From positions 8,331-72,330 of the forward strand of contig JAKSIO010000004.1 in NCBI GenBank assembly GCA_024398785.1: 64,000 nt of DNA. Reading direction: 5' to 3'. The notes beneath the pieces were generated by a model. It ran no database searches and was not told the origin of the DNA. It worked only from the letters and a program-made list of their open reading frames with translations. Every line of letters begins with the position of its first letter. The first letter of the stretch is position 1. A program made the translations under genes and the position numbers. Positions 5,390 through 57,314 of this stretch are shown one piece after another. This DNA comes from Bacteroidaceae bacterium (lineage in GTDB: Bacteria > Bacteroidota > Bacteroidia > Bacteroidales > Bacteroidaceae).

Positions 5390-7720
5390 ATGAAATCAAT
5401 TATTAGAACACTACTTTTATTATGCGCAGTATCTTGCGGTGTTACTGTTTATGCCGGAGAACTTAAACTATGGTACAATCAGGTCCCGAACCAGTGGGAG
5501 GCAGCACTGCCGATAGGTAACGGACGTCTTGGAGCTATGGTTTATGGAAATCCTGTAAACGAGGAATTCCAGCTTAACGAAGAAACTATCTGGGGCGGCG
5601 GTCCGCACAACAATACAAATCCGCGTGCCAAGGAGGGGTTGGCAGAGATACGTCAGTTGCTTTTTGACGACAGGAACAGCGAGGCTCAGGCTCTTTGTGA
5701 CGAGTATATTTCCAAAGGACCTCATGGAATGCCATATCAGACAGCCGGTTCGTTGAAACTTGCGTTCAAGGGTGTGGAATCTTATTCAAATCTTTATCGA
5801 GAACTGGATCTGAATAACGCTTTGGCTACAACTACTTTTCAAGCCGGCGGAGTAGAGTACAAGCGTGAGGCATTTGCTTCTTTCACCGATAATCTTATCA
5901 TTATCCGTCTGACGGCATCGGAAAAAGGGAAAATCAGTTTCAATGCAAGTCTTACGTCACCGTTCCGCAATCAGGAACCGGTTGTGGCGCAAGGTAATGA
6001 GATGCGTCAGTCGCAACTTTGCAATGACCATGAAGGTATTGCAGGTGTAGTACGTTTTACCAGAATAGCCAAGATTGTTCCTGAAGGTGGAACTATTGAG
6101 GCCCAGTCTGACGGCACTATCAATGTTGACAATGCAGACCAGGTTCTGATTTTTGTTTCAATAGGAACAAACTTTGTGAATTACAAAGATGTTTCTGCCA
6201 ATTCTGTTCAAGAGGCTGAAAAGTTTATGAACGCTTCAAAGAACGCCATAAAGAATTATGACAAAGCGCTTGGTGCACATATTGAAGCATACCGCAAGCA
6301 GTTTGCACGCGTTTCTCTTGACCTTGGAACCAATGATCAGGCAAAACTTCCTACTGATGAGCGTGTGCGCCAGTTCCGCAATACATTCGATCCGCAGATG
6401 GTTGAACTCTATTTCCAGTACGGACGTTATCTGCTTATCTGCAGTTCACAGCCTGGCGGTCAGGCAGCAAACCTGCAGGGTATATGGAACCAGTCCCTGT
6501 CAGCTCCATGGGATGGAAAATATACTACAAACATCAATCTTGAAATGAATTACTGGCCGTCTGATATCTGCAATCTCCCTGAAAGTTATCAGGCATTCGT
6601 CAAGTTTGCAAAAGAGGTTGCCGAACATGGCGTTGAAAGTGCCCAGATGTATGGCTGCCGCGGTTGGACATTGCACCACAATACGGATATATGGCGTTCT
6701 ACCGGAGTGGTTGATGGTGCCGGAAACGGAATGTGGCCTACAGGTAATGCGTGGTTGTGCCAGCAGTTGTGGGATTCTTATCTCTATACACAGGATATGG
6801 ACTATCTGAAAGATATATATCCTCTGATGAAAGGTGCCTGTGAATTCTTTATTGATTTTCTTGTGCCTGAGCCTGAAAACGGATACCTGGTGGTTTCTCC
6901 GTCATATTCACCTGAGAATCCTCCTTATGTAACTGACCGTAAGGGCGGGTTTACCACAAGTTACGGTGTTGCAATGGATAATGAACTTCTGTACGATTTG
7001 TTTGGCAACACTATCCGTGCTGCAGCAATTATGAAAGAAAATAAGTTGTTTGTTGATACTCTTATTGATATCAAGAACCGTCTTTGTCCTCTGAAAATTG
7101 GCCGTTGGGGTCAGTTGCAGGAATGGTTTGACGATTGGGATAATCCGCGTGACAATCACCGTCATGTTTCACATCTGTGGGCTTTGTATCCCGGCCGTCA
7201 GATAACAAAAGATACTCCTGAGCTGTTCAAAGCTGCCCGTACATCCCTGGAGGCACGTGGTGATGAATCAACAGGATGGTCAATGGGTTGGAAGGTCTGC
7301 TTGTGGGCAAGACTTCTGGACGGAAATCATGCATACAAGCTTATTACTGATCAGATAAAGCCTGCCGGTGGTCGCGGATTCGGCGGCAGTGGCGGTACCT
7401 ATCCTAATCTGTTTGACGCACATCCGCCATTCCAGATTGACGGAAACTTTGGCTGTACGGCAGGTATTGCTGAAATGTTTGTCCAAAGCCATACCGGAGA
7501 AATTGTAATTCTGCCGGCACTTCCTGACGTATGGAAACCGCAAGGTACAGTAAAAGGTCTGCATGCCCGTGGAGGTTTTGAGATTGTGGAACTTACGTGG
7601 AAAGACGGAATAGTAACAAATCTTGTAATCAAGTCTCTTGCAGGAAAAACATTGTCTGTAAGAGTTAACGGAGAGTTGAAGACTCTTGATACCAAAACAG
7701 GTAAATCCTATAAATTGTGA
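5390..7720 (+). CDS. glycoside hydrolase family 95 (alpha-L-fucosidase/alpha-L-galactosidase)
   Basis: LWYNQ..W..ALPIGNGRLGAMVYG...EETIWGGGP N-terminal signature and about 775 aa. The start is moved from 5366 to ATG 5390, which gives the signal peptide MKSIIRTLLLLCAVSC. Confidence 0.85.
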   Translation: MKSIIRTLLLLCAVSCGVTVYAGELKLWYNQVPNQWEAALPIGNGRLGAMVYGNPVNEEFQLNEETIWGGGPHNNTNPRAKEGLAEIRQLLFDDRNSEAQALCDEYISKGPHGMPYQTAGSLKLAFKGVESYSNLYRELDLNNALATTTFQAGGVEYKREAFASFTDNLIIIRLTASEKGKISFNASLTSPFRNQEPVVAQGNEMRQSQLCNDHEGIAGVVRFTRIAKIVPEGGTIEAQSDGTINVDNADQVLIFVSIGTNFVNYKDVSANSVQEAEKFMNASKNAIKNYDKALGAHIEAYRKQFARVSLDLGTNDQAKLPTDERVRQFRNTFDPQMVELYFQYGRYLLICSSQPGGQAANLQGIWNQSLSAPWDGKYTTNINLEMNYWPSDICNLPESYQAFVKFAKEVAEHGVESAQMYGCRGWTLHHNTDIWRSTGVVDGAGNGMWPTGNAWLCQQLWDSYLYTQDMDYLKDIYPLMKGACEFFIDFLVPEPENGYLVVSPSYSPENPPYVTDRKGGFTTSYGVAMDNELLYDLFGNTIRAAAIMKENKLFVDTLIDIKNRLCPLKIGRWGQLQEWFDDWDNPRDNHRHVSHLWALYPGRQITKDTPELFKAARTSLEARGDESTGWSMGWKVCLWARLLDGNHAYKLITDQIKPAGGRGFGGSGGTYPNLFDAHPPFQIDGNFGCTAGIAEMFVQSHTGEIVILPALPDVWKPQGTVKGLHARGGFEIVELTWKDGIVTNLVIKSLAGKTLSVRVNGELKTLDTKTGKSYKL

Positions 7721-7736
7721 AATAAATTGAAATAGA

Positions 7737-7768
7737 TTTGTTTTATATTGAAAGAAGGTTTATTTTTG
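7737..7768 (+). promoter_or_regulatory. Bacteroidota sigma-A type promoter (-33 TTTG / -7 TATTTTTG)
   Basis: TTTG at 7737-7740, exactly 20 nt spacer, then TATTTTTG at 7761-7768 (perfect TAnnTTTG). It lies 17 nt after the GH95 stop and 19 nt before the leader ATG. Confidence 0.6.
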
Positions 7769-7786
7769 TGAGTCATTTTAACAGAA

Positions 7787-7852
7787 ATGAAATTTATTAA
7801 GAATTTATACGCTTATTATTACTACTATTATCGCACTGAACTGGTGGGGTAA
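7787..7852 (+). CDS. candidate Tyr-rich leader peptide MKFIKNLYAYYYYYYRTELVG (21 aa, not in the ORF track)
   Basis: ATG 7787, TAA 7850-7852. Seven Tyr codons, six of them consecutive (7814-7831, TAT/TAC). Positioned between a consensus promoter and an intrinsic terminator upstream of paaK. Confidence 0.45.
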   Translation: MKFIKNLYAYYYYYYRTELVG

Positions 7853-7893
7853 TCTTAAGTGTGTACATATAAAAAACTGAAGACCTGCCCCAC
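7844..7893 (+). promoter_or_regulatory. candidate antiterminator helix
   Basis: GUGGGGUA (7844-7851, the end of the leader ORF including part of the stop) pairs with UGCCCCAC (7886-7893). That is 8 bp with one G.U. The second strand overlaps the top of the terminator 5' arm and its loop, so the two structures exclude each other. Confidence 0.35.
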
Positions 7894-7910
7894 AAAGCAG
7901 GTCTTTTTTG
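7879..7910 (+). terminator. intrinsic terminator / attenuator upstream of paaK
   Basis: Stem 7879-7888 (gaagacctgc) pairs with 7897-7906 (gcaggtcttt), 10 bp including one G.U. The loop is cccacaaa and the T-tract runs 7904-7909. It sits 31 nt before the paaK ATG. Confidence 0.8.
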
Positions 7911-7941
7911 TGCAAAAGGAAATATAAAAATTACAATATAT

Positions 7942-9243
7942 ATGACTAAAGATTTTTGGCAGGAAGAAATTGAAACAATGCCACGCAAACAGTTGGAGCA
8001 ACTGCAGGTGGAAAGACTAAAAAAAACAGTAGAGATAGCAATGAATTCTCCGTTTTACGGCCCTATGTTCAAGGAGCGCGGAATTACCCCGGAGAGTATC
8101 AAAAGTGTAGAGGATATACGCCGTTTCCCGTTTACGACAAAACAGGATTTGCGTGACAATTATCCGTTCGGTCTTGCAAGCGTTCCTTTGGAGAAGGTGG
8201 TCCGTCTGCACTCTTCAAGCGGTACAACAGGCAAACCTACTGTTATTCTGCATACCAAGAAAGATATTGAGCAGTGGGCCGATGCCATGGCACGCAGTAT
8301 GTACTGCATAGGTCTGCGCAGCACTGATGTTATTCAGAATACATCCGGATACGGTATGTTTACCGGTGGTCTTGGTATTCAGTATGCCGCAGAGCGTTTG
8401 GGCGCACTGACTGTTCCTGCTGGAGCCGGAAACAGTCTGCGTCACCTCAAATTCATTCAGGATTTCGGCACTACGGCCTTGCATTGTATTCCTTCTTACG
8501 CTACACGTCTGGCTACTGTTCTTAATGAAAACGGCGTTGATCCACGTGAAACAAAAATCCACACTCTGATTATCGGTGCAGAACCTCATTCAGAAGCACA
8601 ACGCAAACGTATTGAAGAAATTTGGGGAGCCAAAGCCTACAATAATTTTGGAATGAGTGAAATGTGCGGCCCGGGTGTTGCAATAGAATGTAAGGAACAG
8701 AACGGTATGCACATATGGGAAGACAACTATATTGTTGAAATTGTTGATCCGCAGACTCTTGAGCCTGTTAAGGAGGGCGAACTTGGCGAATTGGTTCTTA
8801 CCACTCTTAACCGTGAAGCTATGCCTTTGTTCCGTTACCGTACACGTGACCTGACCCGTATTCTTCCGGGTGATTGTCCTTGCGGTCGTACTCATAAACG
8901 TCTTGCCCGTTTCCAGGGTCGTTCGGACGATATGATGATTGTGAAAGGTGTCAATATCTATCCTATACAGATTGAGAAGGTAATAATGGAGTATCCTGAA
9001 CTGACCAGCGATTATCTGATAACACTTGACACTATTGGTGATAACGACGAGATGACCCTTGAGGTTGAATTGGTTCAGCTTGTTGATGATTATGCTTATC
9101 TGCAGAATCTCAATAAGGAACTGTCACGCAGGATCAAGGATGAGATTCTTATTACTCCGCGTATCAAGTTCGTACCCAAGGGCTCTATTCCGCAGTCCGA
9201 AGGCAAGGCCGTACGTGTGAAAGATAACCGGCAGAATCATTAA
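7942..9243 (+). CDS. paaK: phenylacetate-CoA ligase family (aryl-acetate-CoA ligase)
   Basis: SSGTTGKPT AMP-binding motif, YRTRD block, 433 aa. Size and motif order are typical of PaaK-type ligases. Confidence 0.85.
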   Translation: MTKDFWQEEIETMPRKQLEQLQVERLKKTVEIAMNSPFYGPMFKERGITPESIKSVEDIRRFPFTTKQDLRDNYPFGLASVPLEKVVRLHSSSGTTGKPTVILHTKKDIEQWADAMARSMYCIGLRSTDVIQNTSGYGMFTGGLGIQYAAERLGALTVPAGAGNSLRHLKFIQDFGTTALHCIPSYATRLATVLNENGVDPRETKIHTLIIGAEPHSEAQRKRIEEIWGAKAYNNFGMSEMCGPGVAIECKEQNGMHIWEDNYIVEIVDPQTLEPVKEGELGELVLTTLNREAMPLFRYRTRDLTRILPGDCPCGRTHKRLARFQGRSDDMMIVKGVNIYPIQIEKVIMEYPELTSDYLITLDTIGDNDEMTLEVELVQLVDDYAYLQNLNKELSRRIKDEILITPRIKFVPKGSIPQSEGKAVRVKDNRQNH

Positions 9244-9261: not shown

Positions 9262-9687
9262 ATGTTTTCAATTAAAAGAATAAAACAGCTGTCTGTTTTT
9301 TTGGAAAATAAGGAAGGTGCAACAGCACAGGTTTTCAATATTCTTAAAGATGCCGGAATATCGGTAAGCGGTGCATCACTTTCCGATACGGCAGATTATG
9401 CGCTTATGCGTATGCTTGTTTCCGATTCGCAGAAAGCCCAGCAGGTATTGTTTGCAAACGGAATCAATTGTGTTGAATCTGTTGTTGTAGGATACAAATT
9501 GGATTCTCTTGAAGAGGTTACTGTAGTTCTTAATGAACTTGCAAGAAAGAAATTCAGTATAAACTACATGTATATAACCAGCCTTGGCAGTGGTAATGCA
9601 CATTATATGGTATTCCGTCTGTCAGATACCGACAAGTTCTTTGAACAGGCTGCGCGGGCTGAAATTGTTGTTGAAGATTTCAATTGA
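9262..9687 (+). CDS. ACT domain-containing (amino-acid-binding) protein
   Basis: 141 aa, with two ACT-like repeats (LSVFLENKEGATAQVFNILKDAGISV... and ...EVTVVLNELARKKFSINYMY...). This is the usual small partner gene after paaK in anaerobes. Confidence 0.55.
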   Translation: MFSIKRIKQLSVFLENKEGATAQVFNILKDAGISVSGASLSDTADYALMRMLVSDSQKAQQVLFANGINCVESVVVGYKLDSLEEVTVVLNELARKKFSINYMYITSLGSGNAHYMVFRLSDTDKFFEQAARAEIVVEDFN

Positions 9688-9696
9688 TATCATATT

Positions 9697-11247
9697 ATGA
9701 GACTTGCTATTCTTATTACAGTTCTTGTATTGTACTTTGCTCTCCTTATAGGTGTTGGTATGCACTATAAGAAGAAAACTACCGATGTCAACGGCTTTGT
9801 TCTTGGCGGCCGCAGTGTTGGCGCATGGCTTTCCGCATTCACATTCGGTACATCTTACTTTTCTGCAGTGATTTTTATTGGTTTTGCCGGCCAGTTCGGT
9901 TGGAAATATGGTGTTTCCGCCACATGGATCGGTATTGGCAATGCTGTTATCGGTTCATTGCTGGCATGGAAGATTCTTGGACGCCGTACGCGTCTTATGA
10001 GCCAGCAGCTGAATTCTGCAACCATGCCGCAGTTTTTCGGACGCCGTTTTGACAGCAATGCCCTTAAGGTTGTTGCCAGTGTGATAATATTTGTTTTCCT
10101 GATACCATATACCGCATCTTTGTACAACGGTCTGTCAAGATTGTTTACAATGGCGTTCGGTATTGACTATATTGTATGTATCATAGTCATGGCTGTTATT
10201 ACTGCAATTTATGTCACTGCGGGCGGATATAAGGCTGCTGCTACAAACGACTTTATCCAGGGTATGATCATGCTGGTGGGCATTGTAGCCGTTGTTGCTG
10301 CCGTCCTCAAGTCGAAAGGCGGTTTCCAGGAGTCTTTGAACGGTCTTGCCGCTGTGCGGGATGCTACCATAGAGAATGGAACCGTCCCCGGCATATTCGC
10401 CTCGTTCTTCGGACCTGCCCCGCTGGCTTTGATGTTTGTAGTCATTCTAACATCGCTTGGTACATGGGGACTGCCGCAGATGGTCCAGAAATTCTATGCT
10501 ATCAAAGATGAGAGTGCCATAAAGCGCGGAACTGTAATTTCAACCTTCTTTGCCATTATTGTTGCGGGCGGCAGTTATTTCCTTGGTGGATTCGGCCGTC
10601 TGTTCTCAGATAAGGTGGATGTTGCAAAGGACGGATATGACTGTATTGTTCCTACAATGCTTGAAGAACTTAGTCCGGTTCTGATTGCGCTTGTTGTAGT
10701 ATTGGTGCTTGCGGCAAGTATGAGTACGCTTTCATCGCTTGTCATGGCATCGTCTTCAACTCTTACAATTGACTTTCTTAAAGGTACATTCATGAAAAAT
10801 ATGAATGACCGCAAGCAGTTGTTCATTATCCGTATTCTGATTGTAGTGTTTGTGGTTATCTCTGCCGCTATCGCTATGGTTCAGTATAAGAGCAAGGTTA
10901 CTTTCATTGCCCAGCTTATGGGTATCAGCTGGGGTGCACTTGCAGGTGCTTTCCTTGCTCCGTTCCTTTATGCTTTGTACTGGAAGCGTACTACAAAAGC
11001 TGCCTGTTGGACAAGTTTCGCCATGGGTGTAGGTCTTATGCTTATTGTAATGCTGCACAAGACATGGCTGCCGGCTTTCATGCAGAACCCTATTGCCTGC
11101 GGTGCAATGACCATGCTGCTTGGCCTGGTGGTTGTTCCTGTTGTGAGCTGGTTCACTACACCGGTAAAGCAGGAACTTGTTGATAATGCGTTCAGCTGCT
11201 ATGAACAGAAAACCGTTGTTGAGCAGAAGACAGCATTAGGAGATTGA
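9697..11247 (+). CDS. sodium:solute symporter family transporter
   Basis: 516 aa polytopic membrane protein. GGRSVGAWLSAFTFGTSYFSAVIFIGFAG and the later helices match the SSF (PanF/PutP-like) pattern. Confidence 0.8.
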   Translation: MRLAILITVLVLYFALLIGVGMHYKKKTTDVNGFVLGGRSVGAWLSAFTFGTSYFSAVIFIGFAGQFGWKYGVSATWIGIGNAVIGSLLAWKILGRRTRLMSQQLNSATMPQFFGRRFDSNALKVVASVIIFVFLIPYTASLYNGLSRLFTMAFGIDYIVCIIVMAVITAIYVTAGGYKAAATNDFIQGMIMLVGIVAVVAAVLKSKGGFQESLNGLAAVRDATIENGTVPGIFASFFGPAPLALMFVVILTSLGTWGLPQMVQKFYAIKDESAIKRGTVISTFFAIIVAGGSYFLGGFGRLFSDKVDVAKDGYDCIVPTMLEELSPVLIALVVVLVLAASMSTLSSLVMASSSTLTIDFLKGTFMKNMNDRKQLFIIRILIVVFVVISAAIAMVQYKSKVTFIAQLMGISWGALAGAFLAPFLYALYWKRTTKAACWTSFAMGVGLMLIVMLHKTWLPAFMQNPIACGAMTMLLGLVVVPVVSWFTTPVKQELVDNAFSCYEQKTVVEQKTALGD

Positions 11248-11271: not shown

Positions 11272-13020
11272 ATGGCAGTAAGGCAGTTCCAGATTTTATT
11301 GATTTCAGGATTATTCTCAGTTTCAATAACCTATGCGGCACAGAAAATAAGTTTTTCAATGCCGCACGGGTTGTACTCAGACCCCGTTGAAGTCAGCCTT
11401 TCTGCTGACAACCCGGTTGGTACTTCAATACATTACACAACTGACGGACGTGTTCCATGTCCGTCAGATTCTGTATATAACGGACCTGTTACAATCAATG
11501 AAACAACCATACTGAGGGCTGCAATATATGCGGATGGTATATCGGACGGCAATAATGCTGCGCCGGTATCTGATGTCGCTACAGCGTCTTACCTGTTTGT
11601 TTCAAGTATCCTTTCGCAATCTGAACACCCCCAAGGATATCCTTCCGTATGGGGACCGTTCATTTGTATTCCCGGAAACGCACCTGCCGATTACGGAATG
11701 GATCAGGAACTTCTGTCTGACAGTACTTTTTGTCTGCGTGCAAGCCAAGGGCTTTATCAGTTGCCCATTGTCTCTGTTGTGACGGATCCCGACTGTCTGT
11801 TCAGTCATGATATGGATGAGCAGAAGGGCGGAATATACATATACACCGGGTCTGAAAAGAGTGATGGTTACGGACGCGGATGGGAGAGACCCGCTTCAAT
11901 TGAAATTTTTGGCACCTTGTCGGACTCTGATGTTCAGGCCGATTGCGGAATCAGAATTCATGGCGGATGCAGCCGGGTTCCGGAAAAGAATCCAAAACAT
12001 AGTTTCAGAATTGTTTTCCGCAGTGAATACGGACCGGGTAAAGTGCAGATGCAATTGTTTGGCAATGAAACCATGCAACCGTACAACAGTCTTGTTCTGC
12101 GCACATTTTCAAACAATTCATGGCAGCATTTCAAACCAAATCGCGGGAAAGCACAGTATATGCGTGAAATGTGGGCGCGTGAAACCCAACGGCAAATGGG
12201 ACACGGATATATCCGGGCACAGTATGTCCATCTGTTTCTTAACGGTATGTACTGGGGAATGTATCTCCTTTCTGAAAGACCGGATGACAAGTGGTGCAGC
12301 AGTGTTTTTGGAGGTAAATCCCAAGATTACGACATATATAAGGACGGTATACTTTTCAAAGGATCTGACGACCGTTGGAATACTATGGTGGCAACCGTTG
12401 ACAGTATAAGGCGGTATTCACTGTTGGGACTCCGAAAAAAATCTGACAGGATTCTGGACAGGCTGGAACTGTTGTTGGATGTAGACAGTTTCATAGACTA
12501 CATGCTATTGAACTTTTATGCCGGAAATACTGATTGGGACACTAATTGGGCCGCTTATGCCAACCGCAAGGAAAAATCAGGCTTCAGGTTTCTCTGTTGG
12601 GATTCGGAATTGGTTTTCGGATCTATGGGAACTGTCAGTATATTGTCAAGAGGCGGTGTCCATAGACAGATATTCCACAAACTGATGTATAATCGGACTT
12701 TCCGTAAACGCTTCAAGGAACGGGTATACCTGAATTGTTACAACAACGGACCTCTTACTCCGGAAAGTGTAATGCGTACTTGGAATGAGCTTTACAGCAG
12801 AATTAACCTTGCATTGTACACAGAATCAGCCCGTTGGGGCGACTACCGCCGTGACGTCCATCCGTATGTGGAAAATACGGACCAGTTGTACACTCCAGAC
12901 AATCAGTTCGCAGCTGAATATTCCAGGCTTATGGATGAATATTTCCCGCATCGTACTGAAAAATTGATAAAACAGTTACGTCTGTTGGGCATTTTCTGTA
13001 AACGCAGTTATTCTAAATAA
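11272..13020 (+). CDS. secreted CotH kinase-family protein with an N-terminal chitobiase/hexosaminidase-C-like domain
   Basis: Signal peptide present. IHYTTDGRVP....YNGPVTINETTILRAAIY matches the CHB_HEX_C-like domain. HGGCSRVPEKNPKHSFRIVFR....YVHLFLNGMYWGMYLLSERPDDKW matches the CotH core. Confidence 0.7.
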   Translation: MAVRQFQILLISGLFSVSITYAAQKISFSMPHGLYSDPVEVSLSADNPVGTSIHYTTDGRVPCPSDSVYNGPVTINETTILRAAIYADGISDGNNAAPVSDVATASYLFVSSILSQSEHPQGYPSVWGPFICIPGNAPADYGMDQELLSDSTFCLRASQGLYQLPIVSVVTDPDCLFSHDMDEQKGGIYIYTGSEKSDGYGRGWERPASIEIFGTLSDSDVQADCGIRIHGGCSRVPEKNPKHSFRIVFRSEYGPGKVQMQLFGNETMQPYNSLVLRTFSNNSWQHFKPNRGKAQYMREMWARETQRQMGHGYIRAQYVHLFLNGMYWGMYLLSERPDDKWCSSVFGGKSQDYDIYKDGILFKGSDDRWNTMVATVDSIRRYSLLGLRKKSDRILDRLELLLDVDSFIDYMLLNFYAGNTDWDTNWAAYANRKEKSGFRFLCWDSELVFGSMGTVSILSRGGVHRQIFHKLMYNRTFRKRFKERVYLNCYNNGPLTPESVMRTWNELYSRINLALYTESARWGDYRRDVHPYVENTDQLYTPDNQFAAEYSRLMDEYFPHRTEKLIKQLRLLGIFCKRSYSK

Positions 13021-26401: not shown

Positions 26402-27730
26402 TTATTTTGAGTGATCCTGGTTGAACTGTTTGAGACGTTCTTCCAGAATTGGGAACTGGTCGTTACGGATGTTTGATGAGCATCCGCGTATACCCTGGCG
26501 TGTTGAGCCGGTAGTTGACAATACAATTCCGCTAATTCCGTAGTACAGCAGTTCATGCAGGAATTCTCCGCCTTCCATATCTTCTCCATTTGGAAGCTTG
26601 TAGCCGAATGTAAAGAAGAAACCGTCGCTTACCGGTTCATCAAGATCCTTGTCATAAGTGATGTGGAATCCGTTTTCAAGCATAAGCTTTTTGATGATAT
26701 TGGTGCGTCGTGCATATTCACGTATCTCTTCACGGAAATTGAATGCTCCATCGCTTGCAGCTTTCATCATGGCTGCCATGGCGCACTGAGCGGAGTGTGT
26801 AACACCGGAAGACATGGTGTACAGCATGTTGTATGCGTAGCATGCACCGAAACGTGATATGCTGTAGCGCTTCTGAAGAGTTTCATAACTGCGCTTGAAC
26901 AGTTTGTCAGCAATGCATGCAATAGCAATACGTTCGCCGGCATAACTGAATATCTTTGACGCGCTGAGCATCATTATATAGTTGTCTGTATAGCGCGATA
27001 CTGTTACCGGGTAAGGGGCTGCGAACGGTGTGCCAAGTCCGTCGCGGCGGAAGTCCATTGTAAGGTATGCAAGGTCTTCAATAACGATGACATCGTATTT
27101 TGTGGCAAGCTCACCTATTGTCTTGAGTTCACTGTCAGTAAGACACATCCAACTTGGATTGTTTGGGTTAGAATATATCATACAGGCAATGTTGCCCTGA
27201 GCAAAATAGCTTTCAAGTTTCGGACCCAGTTTTTCTGCGCGGTAGTCGCTCAAATCAAATGAGGCCTGTTTGGCACCTATGACCTGTGCCTGCATTTTCT
27301 GAACCGGAAATCCTGGGTCAACATACAGAATGGTATCCTTTTTGGAATCAAGCTGTGTGCAGAGCAGGAAGGATGCAAACGTACCCTGCATTGCACCGCT
27401 GGTTGGAATGCAGTTTTTTGCAGGAATATCGGTGTTGAGGAACGCCTTTACAAAACGCGATGCCTCAGTCTTCAGGTCCGTAATACCTTCTATGTTCGGA
27501 TATTTGGCAGCAACGCCTTTCTGCAAGGCTGCACATTGTGCCTCAATACCTACTTTTGCGGGAGGAATACCCGGAATACCCATTTCAAAGTGGATGAACT
27601 CTTTGCCTGTTTCCTTTTCGGCATTTGCCACTACAGCACCAACCTGACGGATTGACGCTTTGTTAAGGTCTGTTATTTCAAGTTCTGCAAGAGTCTTGTC
27701 AATTATGTTTTTGTCAATAGGTGTATTCAT
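26402..27730 (-). CDS. class I/II PLP-dependent aminotransferase
   Basis: 442 aa. SASKIFSYAGERI carries the PLP-lysine motif. YSNPNNPS block is present. It is the last gene of the iorA-iorB operon. Confidence 0.8.
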   Translation of the reverse strand: MNTPIDKNIIDKTLAELEITDLNKASIRQVGAVVANAEKETGKEFIHFEMGIPGIPPAKVGIEAQCAALQKGVAAKYPNIEGITDLKTEASRFVKAFLNTDIPAKNCIPTSGAMQGTFASFLLCTQLDSKKDTILYVDPGFPVQKMQAQVIGAKQASFDLSDYRAEKLGPKLESYFAQGNIACMIYSNPNNPSWMCLTDSELKTIGELATKYDVIVIEDLAYLTMDFRRDGLGTPFAAPYPVTVSRYTDNYIMMLSASKIFSYAGERIAIACIADKLFKRSYETLQKRYSISRFGACYAYNMLYTMSSGVTHSAQCAMAAMMKAASDGAFNFREEIREYARRTNIIKKLMLENGFHITYDKDLDEPVSDGFFFTFGYKLPNGEDMEGGEFLHELLYYGISGIVLSTTGSTRQGIRGCSSNIRNDQFPILEERLKQFNQDHSK

Positions 27731-27732
27731 AA

Positions 27733-28305
27733 TTATTTGCAGTTTCTTCCAAGTTCAAGGGCTTTGATGTTCATTGCGACAATATCTTCTCCCTTGCGTC
27801 CGAAAATGGTTTTTACGCTTTCACATAATTTCTCAAAACTGATGCTCTTGAGCGCTTTCGATGCTGCACCAAGAAGAATCATGTTTACGGAGCGTGACAG
27901 GTTGTTCTCTTTTCCTACGGCATCGGTGTCGATAAGAATAAGGTTGCTTACCTGTTTCAATTCGTTGATGATACTCTCTTCCTGCGGATAGTTGGAAATG
28001 TTGATGAACGGATTGGAAGAAGTTATAATCCAACCGTCTTTTGCAAGGAATTCCTTGTAGCGCAATGCTTCCATGGGTTCCATTGCTATGATAATGTCGG
28101 CCCCGCCCTGCGGAATAAGATCGCTTGCTATTTCAGTATCGGAAATTCTGAGGTTTGACTGCACATCGCCGCCGCGCTGACTCATTCCGTGTACTTCTGC
28201 CTGTTTGATATACAGCCCTTCTTCAAGAGCTGCCTGACCTATAATAGTGGCAATGGAAAGTATTCCCTGACCACCTACTCCTGCCAAAATTATATCTGTT
28301 TTCAT
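27733..28305 (-). CDS. iorB: indolepyruvate ferredoxin oxidoreductase, beta subunit
   Basis: 190 aa. The N-terminus ILAGVGGQGILS is typical of the gamma-type domain of 2-oxoacid:ferredoxin oxidoreductases. There is a 4-nt overlap with iorA. Confidence 0.85.
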   Translation of the reverse strand: MKTDIILAGVGGQGILSIATIIGQAALEEGLYIKQAEVHGMSQRGGDVQSNLRISDTEIASDLIPQGGADIIIAMEPMEALRYKEFLAKDGWIITSSNPFINISNYPQEESIINELKQVSNLILIDTDAVGKENNLSRSVNMILLGAASKALKSISFEKLCESVKTIFGRKGEDIVAMNIKALELGRNCK

Positions 28306-29894
28306 TTCTTTGCTTTTGCTTTACGTTTCAATGTTTGAATACACTCTCTGCGCGGAATAATTACAGACAAACCTTTGTATGCAATCTCAGTGCGCAGTAT
28401 GTTTGTAATTTCTTCCATATTCTGTGGAAGCGGAACAACAACTTTCAGATGTTCCGGATTAACTCCTATACCCTGACAGATAGCTTCAAATTTGCCGGTA
28501 CCCTGTGAATCCTGACCTCCGGTCATACCGGTTGTAAGGTTGTCTGAAATGATTACTGTAATGGGCGAATTCGCATTTACAGCATCAAGCAGACCTGTCA
28601 TACCGGAGTGGGTGAATGTACTGTCGCCTATAATGGCAATTGCAGGGAACAGACCTGCATCTGCGGCTCCTTTTGCCATTGTGATAGATGCACCCATATC
28701 TACTGTACTGTCAAGTGCCTTATATGGCGGCAGAGCACCAAGAGTGTAGCAACCTATATCACCGAATACCTTGGCATCGGGAAATTCTTTTACTACAATG
28801 TTGATAGCCTCGTAAACACTGCGGTGACCGCAACCCTGACACAAGGCAGGCGGACGGTTGACTACTGTTTCGGCTTTCTCAAGGTGTGGAAGCTGCTCCA
28901 TTCTGAGAGCGGCTTTTACAATATCCGGGTTCAGTTCTCCCGTACGCGGAAGAGCTCCGCTCAAACGGCCGGTTACATTGCATTCTATCGGTAAAATACC
29001 CTTGATCTGCTCTTCAACGAATGGCTGTCCGTCTTCAATGACCAGAATGGTTGAGCACTGTTGTGCTATCTGTCTTACTGTATTGGCCGGAATAGGGTAT
29101 TGCGACAGTTTCAAAACCGGAAAATCTATGCCGTCAGGATAACATTCCTGCAGGTAATTGTATGTGTTGCCGCAGGCAATGACACCCATTTTGAACTTGT
29201 CCTGGCATTGAGTGTATTTGTTGAACGGTGAGTTTACGGCTTTGTCCATTATAATATCCTGTTTCTCAATGAGGCTTGCATAACGGCGACGGGCTATTGC
29301 CGGCAGAAGCACCCAGTCTTTGGTTCCATTGACAGGGTTTAATTTGTTCTGAGGACGTACGGTTCCAAGTTCAACAACCGCGCGTGAGTGTGCCAGACGG
29401 GTAACAGTGCGCATAAGTACAGGCAACTTGAGTTCTTCTGACAAATCGTATGCATAACCCATCATTGCATAAGCTTCCTGTTGGGTACTTGGCTCAAGAA
29501 CGGGAAGAAGTGCAAATTTGCCGTAGAAACGTGAGTCCTGCTCATCCTGTGATGAGTGCATTGAAGGATCGTCGGCTACCAGGACAACAATTCCGCCGTT
29601 TACACCTGTGATTGATGAGTTGATGAACGGATCGGCAGCAACGTTCAGGCCCACATGTTTCATACATACCAATGCACGCTTGCCGGCAAACGACATTCCA
29701 AGAGCAGCTTCCATGGCTGTCTTTTCGTTTGTGCACCAGTGATTGTGAATTTTTTCTCCAGTACTTTTGCAGTAACCCTGTATATACTCGGTAATTTCTG
29801 TAGAAGGTGTTCCAGGGTAAGCGTATACTCCGCTTAAACCTGCATCCAGGGCTCCTTGAGCTATTGCTTCATCGCCCAGTAAAAGTTTCTTCAT
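28302..29894 (-). CDS. iorA: indolepyruvate ferredoxin oxidoreductase, alpha subunit
   Basis: 530 aa. LLGDEAIAQGALDAGL..YPGTPSTEI at the N-terminus, the TPP-binding block GDIGCYTLG...GDSTF.HSG and the CQGCGHR motif are present. Confidence 0.85.
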   Translation of the reverse strand: MKKLLLGDEAIAQGALDAGLSGVYAYPGTPSTEITEYIQGYCKSTGEKIHNHWCTNEKTAMEAALGMSFAGKRALVCMKHVGLNVAADPFINSSITGVNGGIVVLVADDPSMHSSQDEQDSRFYGKFALLPVLEPSTQQEAYAMMGYAYDLSEELKLPVLMRTVTRLAHSRAVVELGTVRPQNKLNPVNGTKDWVLLPAIARRRYASLIEKQDIIMDKAVNSPFNKYTQCQDKFKMGVIACGNTYNYLQECYPDGIDFPVLKLSQYPIPANTVRQIAQQCSTILVIEDGQPFVEEQIKGILPIECNVTGRLSGALPRTGELNPDIVKAALRMEQLPHLEKAETVVNRPPALCQGCGHRSVYEAINIVVKEFPDAKVFGDIGCYTLGALPPYKALDSTVDMGASITMAKGAADAGLFPAIAIIGDSTFTHSGMTGLLDAVNANSPITVIISDNLTTGMTGGQDSQGTGKFEAICQGIGVNPEHLKVVVPLPQNMEEITNILRTEIAYKGLSVIIPRRECIQTLKRKAKAKK

Positions 29895-29928
29895 GTTAAG
29901 TTATTTCCTTTTTTTTAATATGTGTCCG

Positions 29929-29960
29929 CAAAGTTAATGCAATACTTTTCAATAACCAAA
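29929..29960 (-). promoter_or_regulatory. iorA operon promoter (-33 TTTG / -7 TAACTTTG)
   Basis: On the minus strand: TTTG (29957-29960), 20-nt spacer, TAACTTTG (29929-29936). It lies about 34 nt upstream of the iorA ATG. Confidence 0.6.
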
Positions 29961-30036
29961 TCTATATTCTCTTTTTACCCTGACGTTATTTGTCAGCAAA
30001 AAAATTATTAACTTTACGGCACAAATACTGAGAGCT

Positions 30037-32292
30037 ATGGCAAATGACAATCTGTTTTCGCCTGAAGAGGAAAAACGCATTGACGAGGCTTTTGAAACCT
30101 TGGTGAAAACCTATTTACAAAGTCCGCATCGTAAGAAAGTTGATTTAATTACAAAGGCATTTAATTTTGCCCGTCAGGCACATCATGGCGTACGCCGTCA
30201 CTCAGGCGAGCCTTATATTATGCATCCGCTGGCTGTGGCTCAGATTGTTAGCGGAGAAATAGGCCTGGGCTCAACTTCCATTTGTGCCGCTCTTTTGCAT
30301 GATGTTGTAGAAGATACTGATTACACGACCGATGACATAAAAGTTGTGTTTGGTCCTAAAATCGCTCAGATTGTTGACGGTCTGACAAAGATTGCCGGCG
30401 GTATTTTCGGTGAAAAGGCAAGTGCGCAGGCTGAAAACTTCAAAAAACTTCTCCTTACCATGTCAGACGATATCCGTGTTATTCTGGTAAAGATTGCGGA
30501 CCGTCTGCACAATATGCGCACTTTGGAGTATATGCAGGAGAGAAAACAGTATAAGATAGCAGGCGAGACCCTATACCTGTATGCACCGTTGGCATATCGT
30601 CTGGGACTGAACAATATCAAAACTGAACTTGAAGATCTGGCTTTCCGTTATGAACATCCGGTAGAGTATAAGGAAATAACAGAACAGCTGGAGGTTACAA
30701 GGGCGCAGCGTGACAAGATGTTTGATCAGTTTACAAAACCAATTGTCAACAAACTTAAGGCAATGGGTATTGAATTCAATATTACCAGCCGTACAAAGGA
30801 ACCATATTCAATCTGGAAGAAAATGAATGCTCAGGGAGTGCGTTTTGATGAAGTCTACGACATTCTTGCAGTCCGGATTATTTACAAACCTTTGACTCCT
30901 GAAAGCGAACTTACTGATTGTTTTAATATCTATCTGGCTCTTACCGAACTCTATAAATCTCATCCTGACCGTTTGCGTGACTGGGTTACCTTACCGAAAG
31001 CCAACGGATATCAGGCTCTTCACGTTACGCTGATGAGTTCTTTCGGTTATTGGGTTGAGGTTCAGATACGCAGTGAACGTATGGACGATATTGCTGAACA
31101 TGGAATTGCAGCGCATTGGAAATATAAAAACGGGAATAAAGATGATTATGAGGATAAGGATTCCCAACTTGGAAAATGGCTTGAAACAATTAAAGAGATT
31201 CTTGAGGACCCCCAGCCGGATTCGATGGACTTTCTGGACACCATCAAGCTGAATCTTTATTCTACCGAGATATTTATTTTTACTCCGAAAGGAGAAATTA
31301 TTACAATGCCTCAGGGCAGTACGGTTCTTGATTTTGCATTCGTTATCCATTCCTTCCTTGGAAACCATTGTATAGGAGCCAAGGTTAATCACAAACTGGA
31401 ATCTCTCAACTACGAGTTGAATAGCGGTGATCAGGTAGAGATACTTACGTCAAAAAATCAGAACATACGGCCGGAATGGGTGGAATATGTAACTACTGCC
31501 AAAGCAAAGAGCAAAATTCAGAGTGCATTGCGTAAAGAGGCCCGTACAAATCGCAGGTTCGGTGAGGCTCTGTTCAATGAGTTTCTGCAGAAAGAGGATT
31601 TGAAGATAACTGATGCCCTGATGCAGAAAATAATTGATGCGCATCATCTTCCTGACCGTGACAGTTATATGATGGCTGTAGGTCAGAAGCAAATAATATT
31701 GGGATCCATTGAGAAGGATATCATCAAGGACTCAACGTCCAGCGGTTTCAGCCGTTTCTGGAAACAGGTCCGTGGAGGTGATTCGCAGAAGGAAGAACAG
31801 AAAGCAACCCAGATTACACCTCAGTTTTCTGATACCATCAACATTAAGAAGGGTCTGGTAATAACCGATGCCAACGTTTCCCAATGCATACTGTCTGACT
31901 GTTGTATGCCTGTTCCTGGCGATGATTGCATGGCGTTTATTGATGATAAGAAGAATATCTGCATTCACCGTCGCACATGTGCCGAAGCTACAAAGATTCA
32001 AAGCGGTAAGGGGAATAGCATCACTACGGTCAAATGGGACATCCTTACAACCCTGTTCCCTACAAAGATTACAGTTGAAGGTGTGGATGGTATAGCAACG
32101 TTACACAAAATGACACATATTATCAGCGAGAAACATGGACTCAACATTATCAAGTTGTCCATTGAAACTGCGAAAGGTATGTTCAAAAGTGAAATTCAGA
32201 TGCTGGTAAAGGACAAAAACAGTATTACCAAGGTTATGAATGACCTTAAGAAACTGGAAAACGTCAAAATGGTTGCCCGTTTGGAGAAATAG
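30037..32292 (+). CDS. bifunctional (p)ppGpp synthetase/hydrolase, RelA/SpoT family
   Basis: HD hydrolase domain (HSGEPYIMHPLAVA...LLHDVVEDT), then the RelA_SpoT synthetase block (YKSHPDRLRDWVTLPKANGYQALHVT), then TGS and ACT-like C-terminal domains. Confidence 0.9.
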   Translation: MANDNLFSPEEEKRIDEAFETLVKTYLQSPHRKKVDLITKAFNFARQAHHGVRRHSGEPYIMHPLAVAQIVSGEIGLGSTSICAALLHDVVEDTDYTTDDIKVVFGPKIAQIVDGLTKIAGGIFGEKASAQAENFKKLLLTMSDDIRVILVKIADRLHNMRTLEYMQERKQYKIAGETLYLYAPLAYRLGLNNIKTELEDLAFRYEHPVEYKEITEQLEVTRAQRDKMFDQFTKPIVNKLKAMGIEFNITSRTKEPYSIWKKMNAQGVRFDEVYDILAVRIIYKPLTPESELTDCFNIYLALTELYKSHPDRLRDWVTLPKANGYQALHVTLMSSFGYWVEVQIRSERMDDIAEHGIAAHWKYKNGNKDDYEDKDSQLGKWLETIKEILEDPQPDSMDFLDTIKLNLYSTEIFIFTPKGEIITMPQGSTVLDFAFVIHSFLGNHCIGAKVNHKLESLNYELNSGDQVEILTSKNQNIRPEWVEYVTTAKAKSKIQSALRKEARTNRRFGEALFNEFLQKEDLKITDALMQKIIDAHHLPDRDSYMMAVGQKQIILGSIEKDIIKDSTSSGFSRFWKQVRGGDSQKEEQKATQITPQFSDTINIKKGLVITDANVSQCILSDCCMPVPGDDCMAFIDDKKNICIHRRTCAEATKIQSGKGNSITTVKWDILTTLFPTKITVEGVDGIATLHKMTHIISEKHGLNIIKLSIETAKGMFKSEIQMLVKDKNSITKVMNDLKKLENVKMVARLEK

Positions 32293-32646: not shown

Positions 32647-33618
32647 TTAGTCGAAAACTTTTGTATTGTTGTCGGCAAGGCGCATCAGTTCAAGATACTG
32701 ATCTGCATCCAGATCCTTAAAGAAGTAGTTTGCAGGATTGTCGTTCTTGCCGTTTATCAACACTTCGTAATGAAGGTGCGGTCCGGTACTCTTACCTGTT
32801 GAACCTGACAGGGCAATGACCTGTCCGCGTACCACCTTGTCTCCTTTTTGCACCTTGAATGAATCAAGATGGGCATATCTTGTTGTGTAACCATACCCGT
32901 GATCAATAACAATCAGGTTTCCGAAACTGCCGCGTTCCGCAGCCCAGGTTACGGTGCCGTTTCCTGTGGCATAGACAGGGGTCTTCTTTGGAACCGCAAA
33001 ATCAATTCCTGCATGGAACTTCTGTGTATGGTAGATAGGATCAATACGGTAACCGTATCCGGAAGGTTGCCAGATAAAATTCTTGTTATACAGAGGCTGT
33101 ATGGCGGGAATTGAAGCAAGACGGTCTTCATTTTTCTTTATCAGTTCAGCCAGTTCTGCAAAAGAATTGGACTGAATGTACAATTGACCCTCAAGTTCCT
33201 GACTGTGCTTTTTTAGCATTTCAATAAGTTCCCTGTTGCTTTGGGTGAGAAATTCCTGATATGACGGCAAAGTGTCAGATTCAGAAATAATCTGAAATGA
33301 CCTGTCTGCGGGTTTTGTTCCCATCAGAACACGATACATATTGTCATCATGATGCTGTATGTCATTCAGAACGGAGAATGCATTGTTGATTCGTTTTTCA
33401 AGAATGGAATACTGCATTGAAAGTTCTTTGTTTTCGCGTTGCAGATCTTTTACCTTGGGTCTGTTTGCGATAAGAATGTATATTCCTGTAAAAACTCCAC
33501 CTATAAGGACACAGTAGATAAAGTTTCTGATATATGTCTTTACTCTCTGCCTGTATGTTGGGTATACACGTCTGTAAAGATGATGGGCCGGATCGTATTG
33601 ATAATAAACTTTATGCAC
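32647..33618 (-). CDS. M23-family peptidoglycan metalloendopeptidase
   Basis: N-terminal TM anchor plus coiled coil. HAGIDFA.... and GSTGKSTGPHLHYEV are the M23 Zn-ligand motifs. Confidence 0.85.
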   Translation of the reverse strand: MHKVYYQYDPAHHLYRRVYPTYRQRVKTYIRNFIYCVLIGGVFTGIYILIANRPKVKDLQRENKELSMQYSILEKRINNAFSVLNDIQHHDDNMYRVLMGTKPADRSFQIISESDTLPSYQEFLTQSNRELIEMLKKHSQELEGQLYIQSNSFAELAELIKKNEDRLASIPAIQPLYNKNFIWQPSGYGYRIDPIYHTQKFHAGIDFAVPKKTPVYATGNGTVTWAAERGSFGNLIVIDHGYGYTTRYAHLDSFKVQKGDKVVRGQVIALSGSTGKSTGPHLHYEVLINGKNDNPANYFFKDLDADQYLELMRLADNNTKVFD

Positions 33619-33637: not shown

Positions 33638-33669
33638 TTTGCAAATGTACTGAAATAGAATTATCTTTG
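33638..33669 (+). promoter_or_regulatory. alaS promoter (-33 TTTG / -7 TATCTTTG)
   Basis: TTTG 33638-33641, 20-nt spacer, TATCTTTG 33662-33669. It lies 28 nt before the alaS ATG. Confidence 0.6.
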
Positions 33670-33697
33670 CAAACAATTTTATTCAAATATCAAAACG

Positions 33698-52866: not shown

Positions 52867-52940
52867 TGGAGCATACGAGACTCGAACTCGTCACCTCTTG
52901 ACTGCCAGTCAAACGCTCTAGCCAGATGAGCTAATGCCCC
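52867..52940 (-). tRNA. tRNA-Ala (anticodon GGC)
   Basis: Hand-folded cloverleaf: acceptor GGGGCAT/ATGCTCC with the G3:U70 Ala identity pair, D arm GCTC/GAGC, anticodon loop CTGGCAG, T arm ACGAG-TTCGAGT-CTCGT, discriminator A. CCA is not encoded. Confidence 0.9.
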
Positions 52941-57243: not shown

Positions 57244-57314
57244 TGGGCTATGGTGTAATGGTAACACTGCAGATTCTGGTCCTGCCTTTCCTGGTTCGAG
57301 TCCGGGTAGCCCAG
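57244..57314 (+). tRNA. tRNA-Gln (anticodon CTG)
   Basis: Hand-folded: acceptor TGGGCTA/TAGCCCA (U1:A72, discriminator G as in bacterial tRNA-Gln), D arm GTGT/ACAC, anticodon loop TTCTGGT, T arm CCTGG-TTCGAGT-CCGGG. There is one A:C mismatch at the base of the anticodon stem. Confidence 0.8.

Follow-up and report, generated by a model that had tools for sequence, protein, structure and literature searches.

The stretch of DNA analyzed here, referred to as the window, comprises 64,000 nucleotides (nt) from a Bacteroidaceae bacterium (assembly GCA_024398785.1, contig JAKSIO010000004.1, forward-strand positions 8,331-72,330). Between a GH95 gene, which ends at 7720 (stop codon 7718-7720), and paaK, the gene for a PaaK-type aryl-acetate-CoA ligase, the window contains a compact unit that consists of a promoter, a short open reading frame (ORF) with a run of Tyr codons and an intrinsic terminator. 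This unit, the paaK leader, is considered below as a candidate tyrosine-responsive attenuator of the paaK operon. The features of the leader and of the adjacent operon are the following:

7737-7740, plus strand: TTTG, the -33 element of a Bacteroidota-type promoter, read from the sequence
7761-7768, plus strand: TATTTTTG (TAnnTTTG), the -7 element, after a 20-nt spacer
7787-7852, plus strand: leader ORF of 21 codons, translated as MKFIKNLYAYYYYYYRTELVG, with the stop codon TAA at 7850-7852
7814-7831, plus strand: six consecutive Tyr codons, with a seventh Tyr codon at 7808-7810
7806-7832, plus strand: region 1, the 5' strand of the anti-antiterminator (1:2) hairpin, present in both the minimum free energy and the centroid structure and overlapping the Tyr codons
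7838-7865, plus strand: region 2, which pairs with region 1 or region 3, with the core GUGGGG at 7844-7849 and the stop codon inside it
7844-7893, plus strand: antiterminator (2:3) hairpin, in which 7844-7860 pairs with 7876-7893
7879-7909, plus strand: intrinsic terminator (3:4), stem 7879-7888/7897-7906, loop 7889-7896, T-run 7904-7909
7942-9243, plus strand: paaK, PaaK-type aryl-acetate (phenylacetate)-CoA ligase, the first regulated gene (Pfam AMP-binding and AMP-binding_C_2)
9262-9687, plus strand: protein with a pair of ACT domains, the second gene (Pfam ACT_8 and ACT)
9697-11247, plus strand: sodium:solute symporter of the SSF family, the third gene (Pfam SSF)

The promoter, the ORF with its seven Tyr codons, the complementarity between GUGGGGUA (7844-7851) and UGCCCCAC (7886-7893) and the terminator stem all lie exactly where a preliminary description of this DNA had placed them, as judged from the sequence and, for the pairings, from folding; the gap between the T-run and the paaK start codon at 7942 is 32 nt, not 31 nt as given there. 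This ORF is the only short ORF with an aromatic run of at least four codons in an intergenic leader position on either strand of the 64 kb, and no leader with a Phe or Trp run was found in the window.

Conservation of the Leader among Related Genomes

Homologous loci (designated by L numbers) were collected by scanning GTDB species genomes with the PaaK protein, which yielded 80 loci with 64-98% identity. The first 20 leaders served to build a covariance model, R1, which was then searched against the window and the GTDB species loci, including 30 more distant paaK loci (L051-L080). The leader unit is found in front of paaK in 23 of 52 related species-level genomes and in one contig-truncated copy (L042); all carriers are uncultured metagenome-assembled genomes. 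Alignment of the paaK upstream regions, a check proposed in the preliminary description, shows that the Tyr-run ORF, the overlap or adjacency of its stop codon and the antiterminator strand, and the terminator occur together in these 23 genomes and in L042. In four further metagenome loci, the Tyr-run ORF, the overlap or adjacency of stop codon and antiterminator, and the terminator likewise co-occur before paaK. Additional sampling by protein look-ups led to the metagenome lineages L201-L208, which also carry the leader, two examples being the peptide MNLCHTNSYFYYYYYRS (L201/L203) and, separately, a 7-Tyr variant of the L012 type. R1 produced no other leader-strand match in the window or in L051-L080; its sole other match is a weak one on the minus strand over the terminator of L023 (22.3 bits, E 0.41). 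A metagenome scan with six TAY codons followed by CGC gave, among the matches listed, only microsatellite-like TAC/TAT repeats, mostly on eukaryote-like contigs, and no homologue of the leader.

The clade defined by at least 78% identity has leader-bearing loci in every one of its deep branches on the PaaK tree, with a derived leaderless subclade nested among them. This topology fits an ancestral leader that would subsequently have been lost in some lineages. The leaderless loci are L002, L007, L009, L013-L016, L020-L022, L024, L026-L031, L037, L039, L045, L060 and L062. In most of those that were checked, a different upstream gene is followed directly by a TAAATTTG -7 box, which lies 26-38 nt from paaK; no such box is seen in L028, L037, L039 and L045. 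Together with the position of the derived subclade and of L037 on the PaaK tree, this suggests that attenuation may have been repeatedly replaced by a plain promoter. Two apparent short ORFs before paaK were rejected as leaders: MLKQIKTYALAYSKS represents the C-terminal end of a longer gene upstream, SufE-like by eye, and an ORF of ~50 amino acids, 'MP..YYVGLSDKG..', is similarly the end of a larger upstream gene. The loci of both have a direct promoter instead of a leader.

The genes that precede the unit belong to at least nine unrelated groups, some of them divergently oriented, and a GH95 gene is found there only in the window and in the near-identical relative L001. Because the same unit stands behind unrelated genes, it belongs to paaK and not to GH95. 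This observation bears directly on the fallback offered in the preliminary description, namely that the hairpin is a plain GH95 terminator, with the Tyr-run ORF a chance frame in an AT-rich spacer. The hairpin is indeed located about 160 nt past the GH95 stop codon, and a simple consensus scan reports only a generic terminator-like site, on the minus strand. However, neither point accounts for a leader and terminator that recur behind the upstream genes of other species, including genes on the opposite strand, or for a Tyr run, an ORF and a promoter that are conserved with synonymous variation. The diversity of upstream neighbors thus excludes the fallback, and we put the chance of a GH95 terminator with an incidental ORF at close to nil.

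The Tyr Codon Run and the Position of the Stop Codon

All homologous leaders contain ATG-initiated ORFs of 14-21 codons with a Tyr run, and their N-terminal residues are highly variable. When the six positions before the Arg codon are counted in 21 distinct leaders (126 codons), 109 codons are Tyr (TAT/TAC). Every one of these positions shows both TAT and TAC, e.g., 10 TAC and 9 TAT at one of them, and TAA or TAG never appears within the run positions. The non-Tyr codons are single-base neighbors of Tyr codons (Cys, Phe, His and similar), and the run comprises 5, 6 or 7 Tyr codons, changing in length by whole codons. As far as sequence comparison goes, this pattern shows that the Tyr run is under coding-type constraint, that is, that the ORF is apparently read as codons; it is probably translated and would respond to tyrosine. 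The leader of L038 (L038:3831-3967) is degenerate, with a broken run (…YTAYSYCSLT) and an intact RNA switch, and may be a decaying or re-specializing copy.

The stop codon is positioned with similar regularity. Relative to the first base of the region 2 core, the stop codon begins no more than 7 nt upstream and no more than 11 nt downstream in all 22 leaders tabulated (the table of promoter boxes and stop codons leaves out L038 and L047). There are three types of ORF endings: in most leaders the stop codon is 1-4 nt before GUGGGG, in L041 it overlaps this motif, and in the window, L001 and L012 it comes after it. All three put the terminating ribosome on region 2. The ending of L047, CGC ACG TAA TC GTGGGG, is like that of L043.

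A run of this kind could, in principle, act through the nascent peptide, in the manner of TnaC or SecM, with a Tyr-rich chain that arrests the ribosome in response to a free small molecule, such as tyrosine or 4-hydroxyphenylacetate, instead of the charging of tRNA-Tyr. The C-termini of arrest peptides are often conserved, and most leaders share a C-terminal YY-R-T/D in their peptides. However, the Arg-Thr codons, CGC-ACN, are part of the CCGCAC strand that pairs with GUGGGG, which explains their conservation at the RNA level, and the leaders of the window, L001 and L012 add 4-5 different residues while retaining the same RNA logic. Moreover, arrest at the stop codon would here favor termination, not induction, and runs of a single codon are a hallmark of charging sensors (PMC3082878 for pheL; PMC11802643). 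An arrest peptide is accordingly an improbable explanation of the leader, and sensing of tRNA-Tyr charging by codon-level stalling is preferred.

The Promoter and the Linkage of the Leader to paaK

The window contains 13 matches to the pattern TTTG-N17-22-TAnnTTTG, where 2.6 would be expected. From the position of the promoter elements, transcription of the leader would start at about 7773-7778. The -7 box (TAnnTTTG; TACTTTTA in L012) is found 11-28 nt before the ATG of the short ORF in 22 of the 22 tabulated leaders. The gap between the terminator and paaK is free of a TAnnTTTG box in 23 of 24 leader entries; the sole exception is L038, where a box ends 3 nt before the ATG. The 32-nt gap of the window contains none. 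Because there is no box between the terminator and paaK, the leader-bearing loci must express paaK through the terminator. Elsewhere in the window, promoter-pattern matches overlap on both strands at 33638-33673, forming a near-palindrome (TTTGCAAATGTACTGAAATAGAATTATCTTTGCAAA) between the divergent ORFs 32647-33618 (minus strand) and 33698-36310 (plus strand).

The leader lies 26-54 nt before paaK, in the same orientation, with the exception of L047, where the distance is 230 nt. This 230-nt spacer (L047:3771-4000) contains no TAnnTTTG box either.

A unit with its own promoter and terminator might alternatively be an independent trans-acting small RNA of about 135 nt, with an ORF that is incidental or that gives the RNA a dual function, and with only a secondary role in paaK control. 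Small RNAs that derive from attenuators and act in trans are known, e.g., rnTrpL of Sinorhizobium (PMC6614838), and the leader has a weak, sub-threshold match to GibS (24 bits against a gathering score of 115). Nevertheless, the fixed placement before paaK on the same strand, with no intervening promoter box outside L038, is not what an independent RNA explains; the Tyr run is conserved as codons, which speaks for translation, and the stop codon has been kept on region 2 through all three ORF endings. We consider a primarily trans-acting RNA unlikely to be the answer; such a role could add to attenuation and would not replace it.

Three Mutually Exclusive Helices

The 141-nt leader folds with a z score of -3.7. 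Three helices can be identified, each of which shares a strand with the next one. The first, helix 1:2 (7806-7832 with 7838-7865), has a free energy of -18.6 kcal/mol (z -3.0) and encloses the Tyr run. Within it, CCGCAC of region 1 (codons UAC-CGC-ACN) resembles CCCCAC of region 3, and each is complementary to GUGGGG of region 2. In other lineages, helix 1:2 is built from unlike strands, such as ACCUCC/GGAGGU, CACACC/GGUGUG, ACAACAGACA/UGUCGUUGU and AUCGGC/GCCGGU; altogether, its equivalents show at least seven different strand sequences among the homologues. The outer part of this helix is formed in different registers in different lineages, such that no single alignment register exists and column-wise covariation cannot be counted. 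For this reason, folding of individual sequences and duplex energies were used instead: the 1:2 duplex ranges from -15 to -25 kcal/mol in 21 leaders, with a median shuffle p of 0.036.

The antiterminator, helix 2:3, consists of GUGGGGUA:UGCCCCAC, UCUU:AAGA and three more pairs (-17.8 kcal/mol, z -2.8). Its 5' part, GUGGGGUA, corresponds to the final two sense codons of the ORF plus the initial TA of the stop codon. The preliminary description had proposed an 8-bp helix that excludes the terminator; the exclusivity stands, and the helix is longer than stated, running through 7844-7860/7876-7893, so that it occupies the entire 5' arm of the terminator. Across 21 leaders, the 2:3 duplex has energies of -14 to -21 kcal/mol (median shuffle p 0.013), and 82.7% of the antiterminator alignment cells are paired, compared with 36-50% when the partner strand is slid. 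Several substitutions preserve this pairing: U:A is replaced by C:G in L032 and L036, with L034 representing a C·A intermediate; the core of L038 has A:U in place of G:C (GUGGAG/UUCCAC); and several G:C pairs have become G·U, with a U·G in L047. The lineages L201-L208 have the same core motifs and bring no new compensatory changes in the antiterminator core.

The terminator hairpin, helix 3:4, has a free energy of -15.3 kcal/mol (z -4.4) and is followed by T6; in 21 leaders, the terminators range from -14 to -23 kcal/mol. The stem covaries, with 93% of the cells paired and 16 cells changed on both sides, a score that none of 500 shuffles reaches. The apex and loop, CCCCAC, are more conserved than the covarying base of the stem. 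Few plain terminators would show such a pattern, which is what one expects of an apex that also pairs with another strand. Taken together, the folding models show a complete four-region attenuator with three mutually exclusive helices of similar strength. The logic of the earlier reading is thereby retained, and helix 1:2, which it had missed, completes it.

An A-run (7871-7876) precedes the terminator hairpin and the T-run follows it, and the simple terminator scan detects the site on the minus strand only, as 11 pairs with G·T. The hairpin could be bidirectional; no minus-strand gene converges on it.

The most conserved parts of the leader are three short G/C-rich motifs, CCGCAC, GUGGGG and CCCCAC, and not the peptide. 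These motifs could be read as binding sites in a protein- or ligand-controlled switch in which translation of the ORF is not the sensor; the ACT amino-acid-binding protein, which is encoded in the operon itself, or another RNA-binding regulator might bind them. However, the three motifs are fully explained as the complementary strands of helices 1:2 and 2:3, and such a switch leaves unexplained the in-frame Tyr run, the exchange of TAT and TAC, the indels of whole codons and the conserved positions of the ATG and the stop codon. Furthermore, no riboswitch or T-box model matches at E values up to 10. A switch of this type is therefore very unlikely.

Predicted Effect of the Ribosome Position

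The consequences of ribosome position for the fold were modeled in 20 distinct leaders by masking the ribosome footprint, taken as -15 to +11 around the A site. In RNA truncated before the 3' arm of the terminator, with the A site on Tyr codons, a fraction of 0.45-0.89 of the terminator 5' arm is paired with region 2 in 20 of 20 leaders; once the ribosome has arrived at the last sense codon or the stop codon, this pairing drops to 0.0-0.41, again in all 20. The model thus reproduces the claim of the preliminary description that the antiterminator strand is masked by a ribosome at the stop codon and left free by one stalled on the Tyr run.

For the full-length leader of the window at equilibrium, a terminator probability as low as 0.01-0.08 is reached only with the A site on the fourth or fifth Tyr codon of the run (leader codons 13-14, 7823-7828); the value is about 1.0 for a ribosome at the stop codon or near the beginning of the ORF. 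Such a clean switch at equilibrium with ribosome masks is seen in the window, in L001 and in a few others, and not in most homologues.

The Proposed Attenuation Mechanism

Considering these observations together, we propose that the leader is a ribosome-mediated transcription attenuator that senses charged tRNA-Tyr and controls the paaK-ACT-symporter operon. Transcription would start ~10 nt upstream of the 21-codon leader ORF. When Tyr-tRNA is plentiful, the ribosome would pass the six Tyr codons and reach the stop codon inside region 2 (GUGGGG-UAA); by covering region 2, the terminating ribosome would allow region 3 to pair with region 4, and transcription would terminate 32 nt before paaK. 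When Tyr-tRNA is scarce, the ribosome would stall on the Tyr run and melt helix 1:2, and the released region 2 could pair with the terminator 5' arm over its full length before the 3' arm has been transcribed, resulting in read-through into paaK. If the leader is not translated at all, helix 1:2 is expected to form first, and the terminator would still form. On the basis of the comparative and folding data, we estimate the probability of this reading at roughly 85%.

Several observations weigh against it. Many full-length homologues keep the terminator at equilibrium wherever the ribosome sits. Since the terminator is favored at equilibrium in many leaders, the switch must be kinetic, i.e., co-transcriptional, as in the trp paradigm. 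Some leaders interrupt the run with Cys, Phe or His codons, and that of L038 holds only scattered Tyr codons. The core of the antiterminator, GUGGGG:CCCCAC, is nearly invariant, and no significant covariation is seen in it, the observed score being reached by 79 of 500 shuffles. For single sequences, the shuffle p of helix 1:2 can be as high as 0.3, and alignment with MAFFT followed by RNAalifold recovers the terminator and only the inner four pairs (CCGC:GUGG) of this helix. The leader is absent, having apparently been lost, in about half of the clade. Finally, the best NCBIfam family for the paaK product is TIGR02155 (PaaK), matched over the full length with 468 bits, which is below the equivalog cut-off of 646, so that the substrate is not fixed by this score. 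Still, each of the rival explanations is much less likely than attenuation, and none of them explains the codon-level conservation and the stop-codon geometry together.

The Regulated Operon and Its Possible Physiological Role

By family, the product of the first gene appears to be a PaaK-like aryl-acetate ligase, with the substrate assigned at the family level only. The ACT gene follows paaK co-linearly in almost every related locus, and the SSF symporter gene is kept after paaK-ACT across the whole closely related clade. A second paaK was not found in the window. Following the symporter gene by 24 nt is a gene for a CotH-kinase-like protein with chitobiase/Fn3-associated N-terminal domains (11272-13020, plus strand), which is outside the conserved operon of other species; its match in L001 is a fragment of 39 amino acids only.

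A second set of genes that might be functionally linked to the operon lies 16.5 kb downstream of its last gene:

28302-29894, minus strand: iorA, for which IOR_alpha is the best-scoring family, below its cut-off
27733-28305, minus strand: iorB, above the NCBIfam equivalog cut-off
26402-27730, minus strand: class I/II aminotransferase

They are served by a promoter of their own and lack a leader. The gene calls of the preliminary description (GH95, PaaK-type ligase, ACT protein, SSF symporter, iorA, iorB and aminotransferase) all hold at the family level. Divergent to the iorA-iorB-aminotransferase operon is a full-length gene for a RelA/SpoT (p)ppGpp synthetase/hydrolase (30037-32292, plus strand); the intergenic region between it and iorA (29895-30036) is ~140 bp long and contains a promoter match on the minus strand at 29929-29960. 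That a stringent-response gene neighbors an amino-acid-related operon could be of significance or could be coincidental.

Rumen bacteria and methanogens make aromatic amino acids from aryl-acetates. A route of this kind can be outlined for the genes described here: 4-hydroxyphenylacetate would be taken up and activated to its CoA ester, then reductively carboxylated by IorAB, and the product would be transaminated to tyrosine. Hence, the operon could import and activate 4-hydroxyphenylacetate, or aryl-acetates more generally, and IorAB and the aminotransferase could then make tyrosine. This proposal draws on the gene families, the regulatory logic and published suggestions. In Bacteroides, the AMP-forming ligase encoded next to IOR has been shown to be an aryl-acetate-CoA ligase, for which an anabolic role was suggested, and whether the IOR/ligase pair makes or degrades aromatic amino acids has recently been raised as a question (PMC13285125). 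A switch that would be induced by starvation in front of the ligase, the ACT protein and the symporter speaks for an operon that supplies tyrosine and does not dispose of it.

Judging from the leader and the genes that follow it, the switch most likely turns on the aryl-acetate uptake and activation operon upon tyrosine shortage in a Bacteroidales bacterium of the gut or rumen. We give even odds to the broader proposition that this is the first dedicated Tyr-codon attenuator, that the operon is a tyrosine-starvation regulon, and that 4-hydroxyphenylacetate is imported when tyrosine is short, with the pathway running in the anabolic direction. If this is true, the IOR/aryl-acetate-ligase pathway would be anabolic in rumen and hindgut Bacteroidales and not just a source of phenylacetate-type fermentation products. 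The pathway is tied to phenylacetate and 4-hydroxyphenylacetate, which are relevant to the host.

Comparison with Known Systems

Searches against Rfam 15 yielded no leader family at threshold in the window or in eight homologous loci. The sub-threshold matches that cover the full length of the models are Phe_leader (RF01859, 25.8 vs. 55 bits), Thr_leader (RF00506, 26.8 vs. 55), Leu_leader (RF00512, 24.1 vs. 50) and Trp_leader (RF00513, 17.4 vs. 41). These matches reflect architectural resemblance, not homology. The T-box (RF00230) is absent from the matches with E up to 10 in 7000-8700; Bacteroid-trp (RF01692) likewise has no match at E up to 10 in this interval and none at the gathering score in the window and the eight homologous loci. 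The sole matches above the gathering score in the 64-kb window are two tRNA genes, at 52867-52940 (minus strand) and 57244-57314 (plus strand). The preliminary description was not aware of any Tyr leader for paaK, and neither a Tyr-codon leader nor a paaK attenuator was found in the literature searched or in Rfam 15.

To our knowledge, very few cis-regulatory RNAs have been described in this phylum. The Bacteroid-trp motif, which contains a Trp-codon leader ORF, is one of them. Weinberg et al. (2010; PMC2864571) described it as a cis-regulatory leader of genes for aromatic amino acids, and it shares with the paaK leader both the phylum and the association with aromatic amino acids; the amino acid and the regulated genes differ. 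In Corynebacterium glutamicum, the aroR leader before aroF contains Phe-Tyr-Phe and responds to Phe limitation, not to Tyr availability (Neshat et al., 2014, as summarized in PMC11802643). The two systems have in common a Tyr codon in a leader-peptide attenuator of aromatic metabolism, but the leaders described here carry 5-7 Tyr codons in front of a salvage/uptake operon.

In Firmicutes, tyrS and tyrosine genes are under T-box control and not under the control of attenuators (PMC1262725). Like the mechanism proposed here, the T-box senses the charging of tRNA-Tyr at the RNA level through a terminator/antiterminator switch. However, the T-box binds uncharged tRNA directly and without translation, whereas in the paaK leader a translated run of codons would take the place of the specifier loop. 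Leaderless short ORFs with poly-cysteine runs act as attenuators in mycobacteria, where the codon run makes expression of the downstream operon sensitive to the amino acid concerned (bioRxiv 10.1101/834739). They differ from the paaK leader in phylum and amino acid, and the paaK leader has an intrinsic terminator and a short 5' untranslated region.

Leader-peptide attenuators are the textbook mode of control for Trp, Phe, His, Leu, Thr and Ile/Val. In the case of tyrosine, the papers found report T-box control (PMC1262725) and the mixed Phe-Tyr-Phe leader (PMC11802643) only. The E. coli systems pheL-pheA and trpL-trpE have the same architecture as the unit upstream of paaK: a promoter-proximal short ORF with a codon run for a single amino acid; four regions that form the helices 1:2, 2:3 and 3:4; a stop codon that lets the terminating ribosome cover region 2; and an intrinsic terminator just before the first gene. 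The paaK leader differs from them in that it would sense tyrosine, resides in Bacteroidales, uses a TTTG/TAnnTTTG promoter, has no Shine-Dalgarno sequence and shows no sequence homology to them. Furthermore, it precedes genes for an aryl-acetate-CoA ligase, an ACT protein and a symporter, and not a de novo biosynthetic operon. The paaK leader would work like the pheL and trpL attenuators and is outside any described family. A covariance model of the leader can be used to annotate related genomes, and a conserved leader with Tyr codons alone fills the tyrosine gap among the leader-peptide attenuators.

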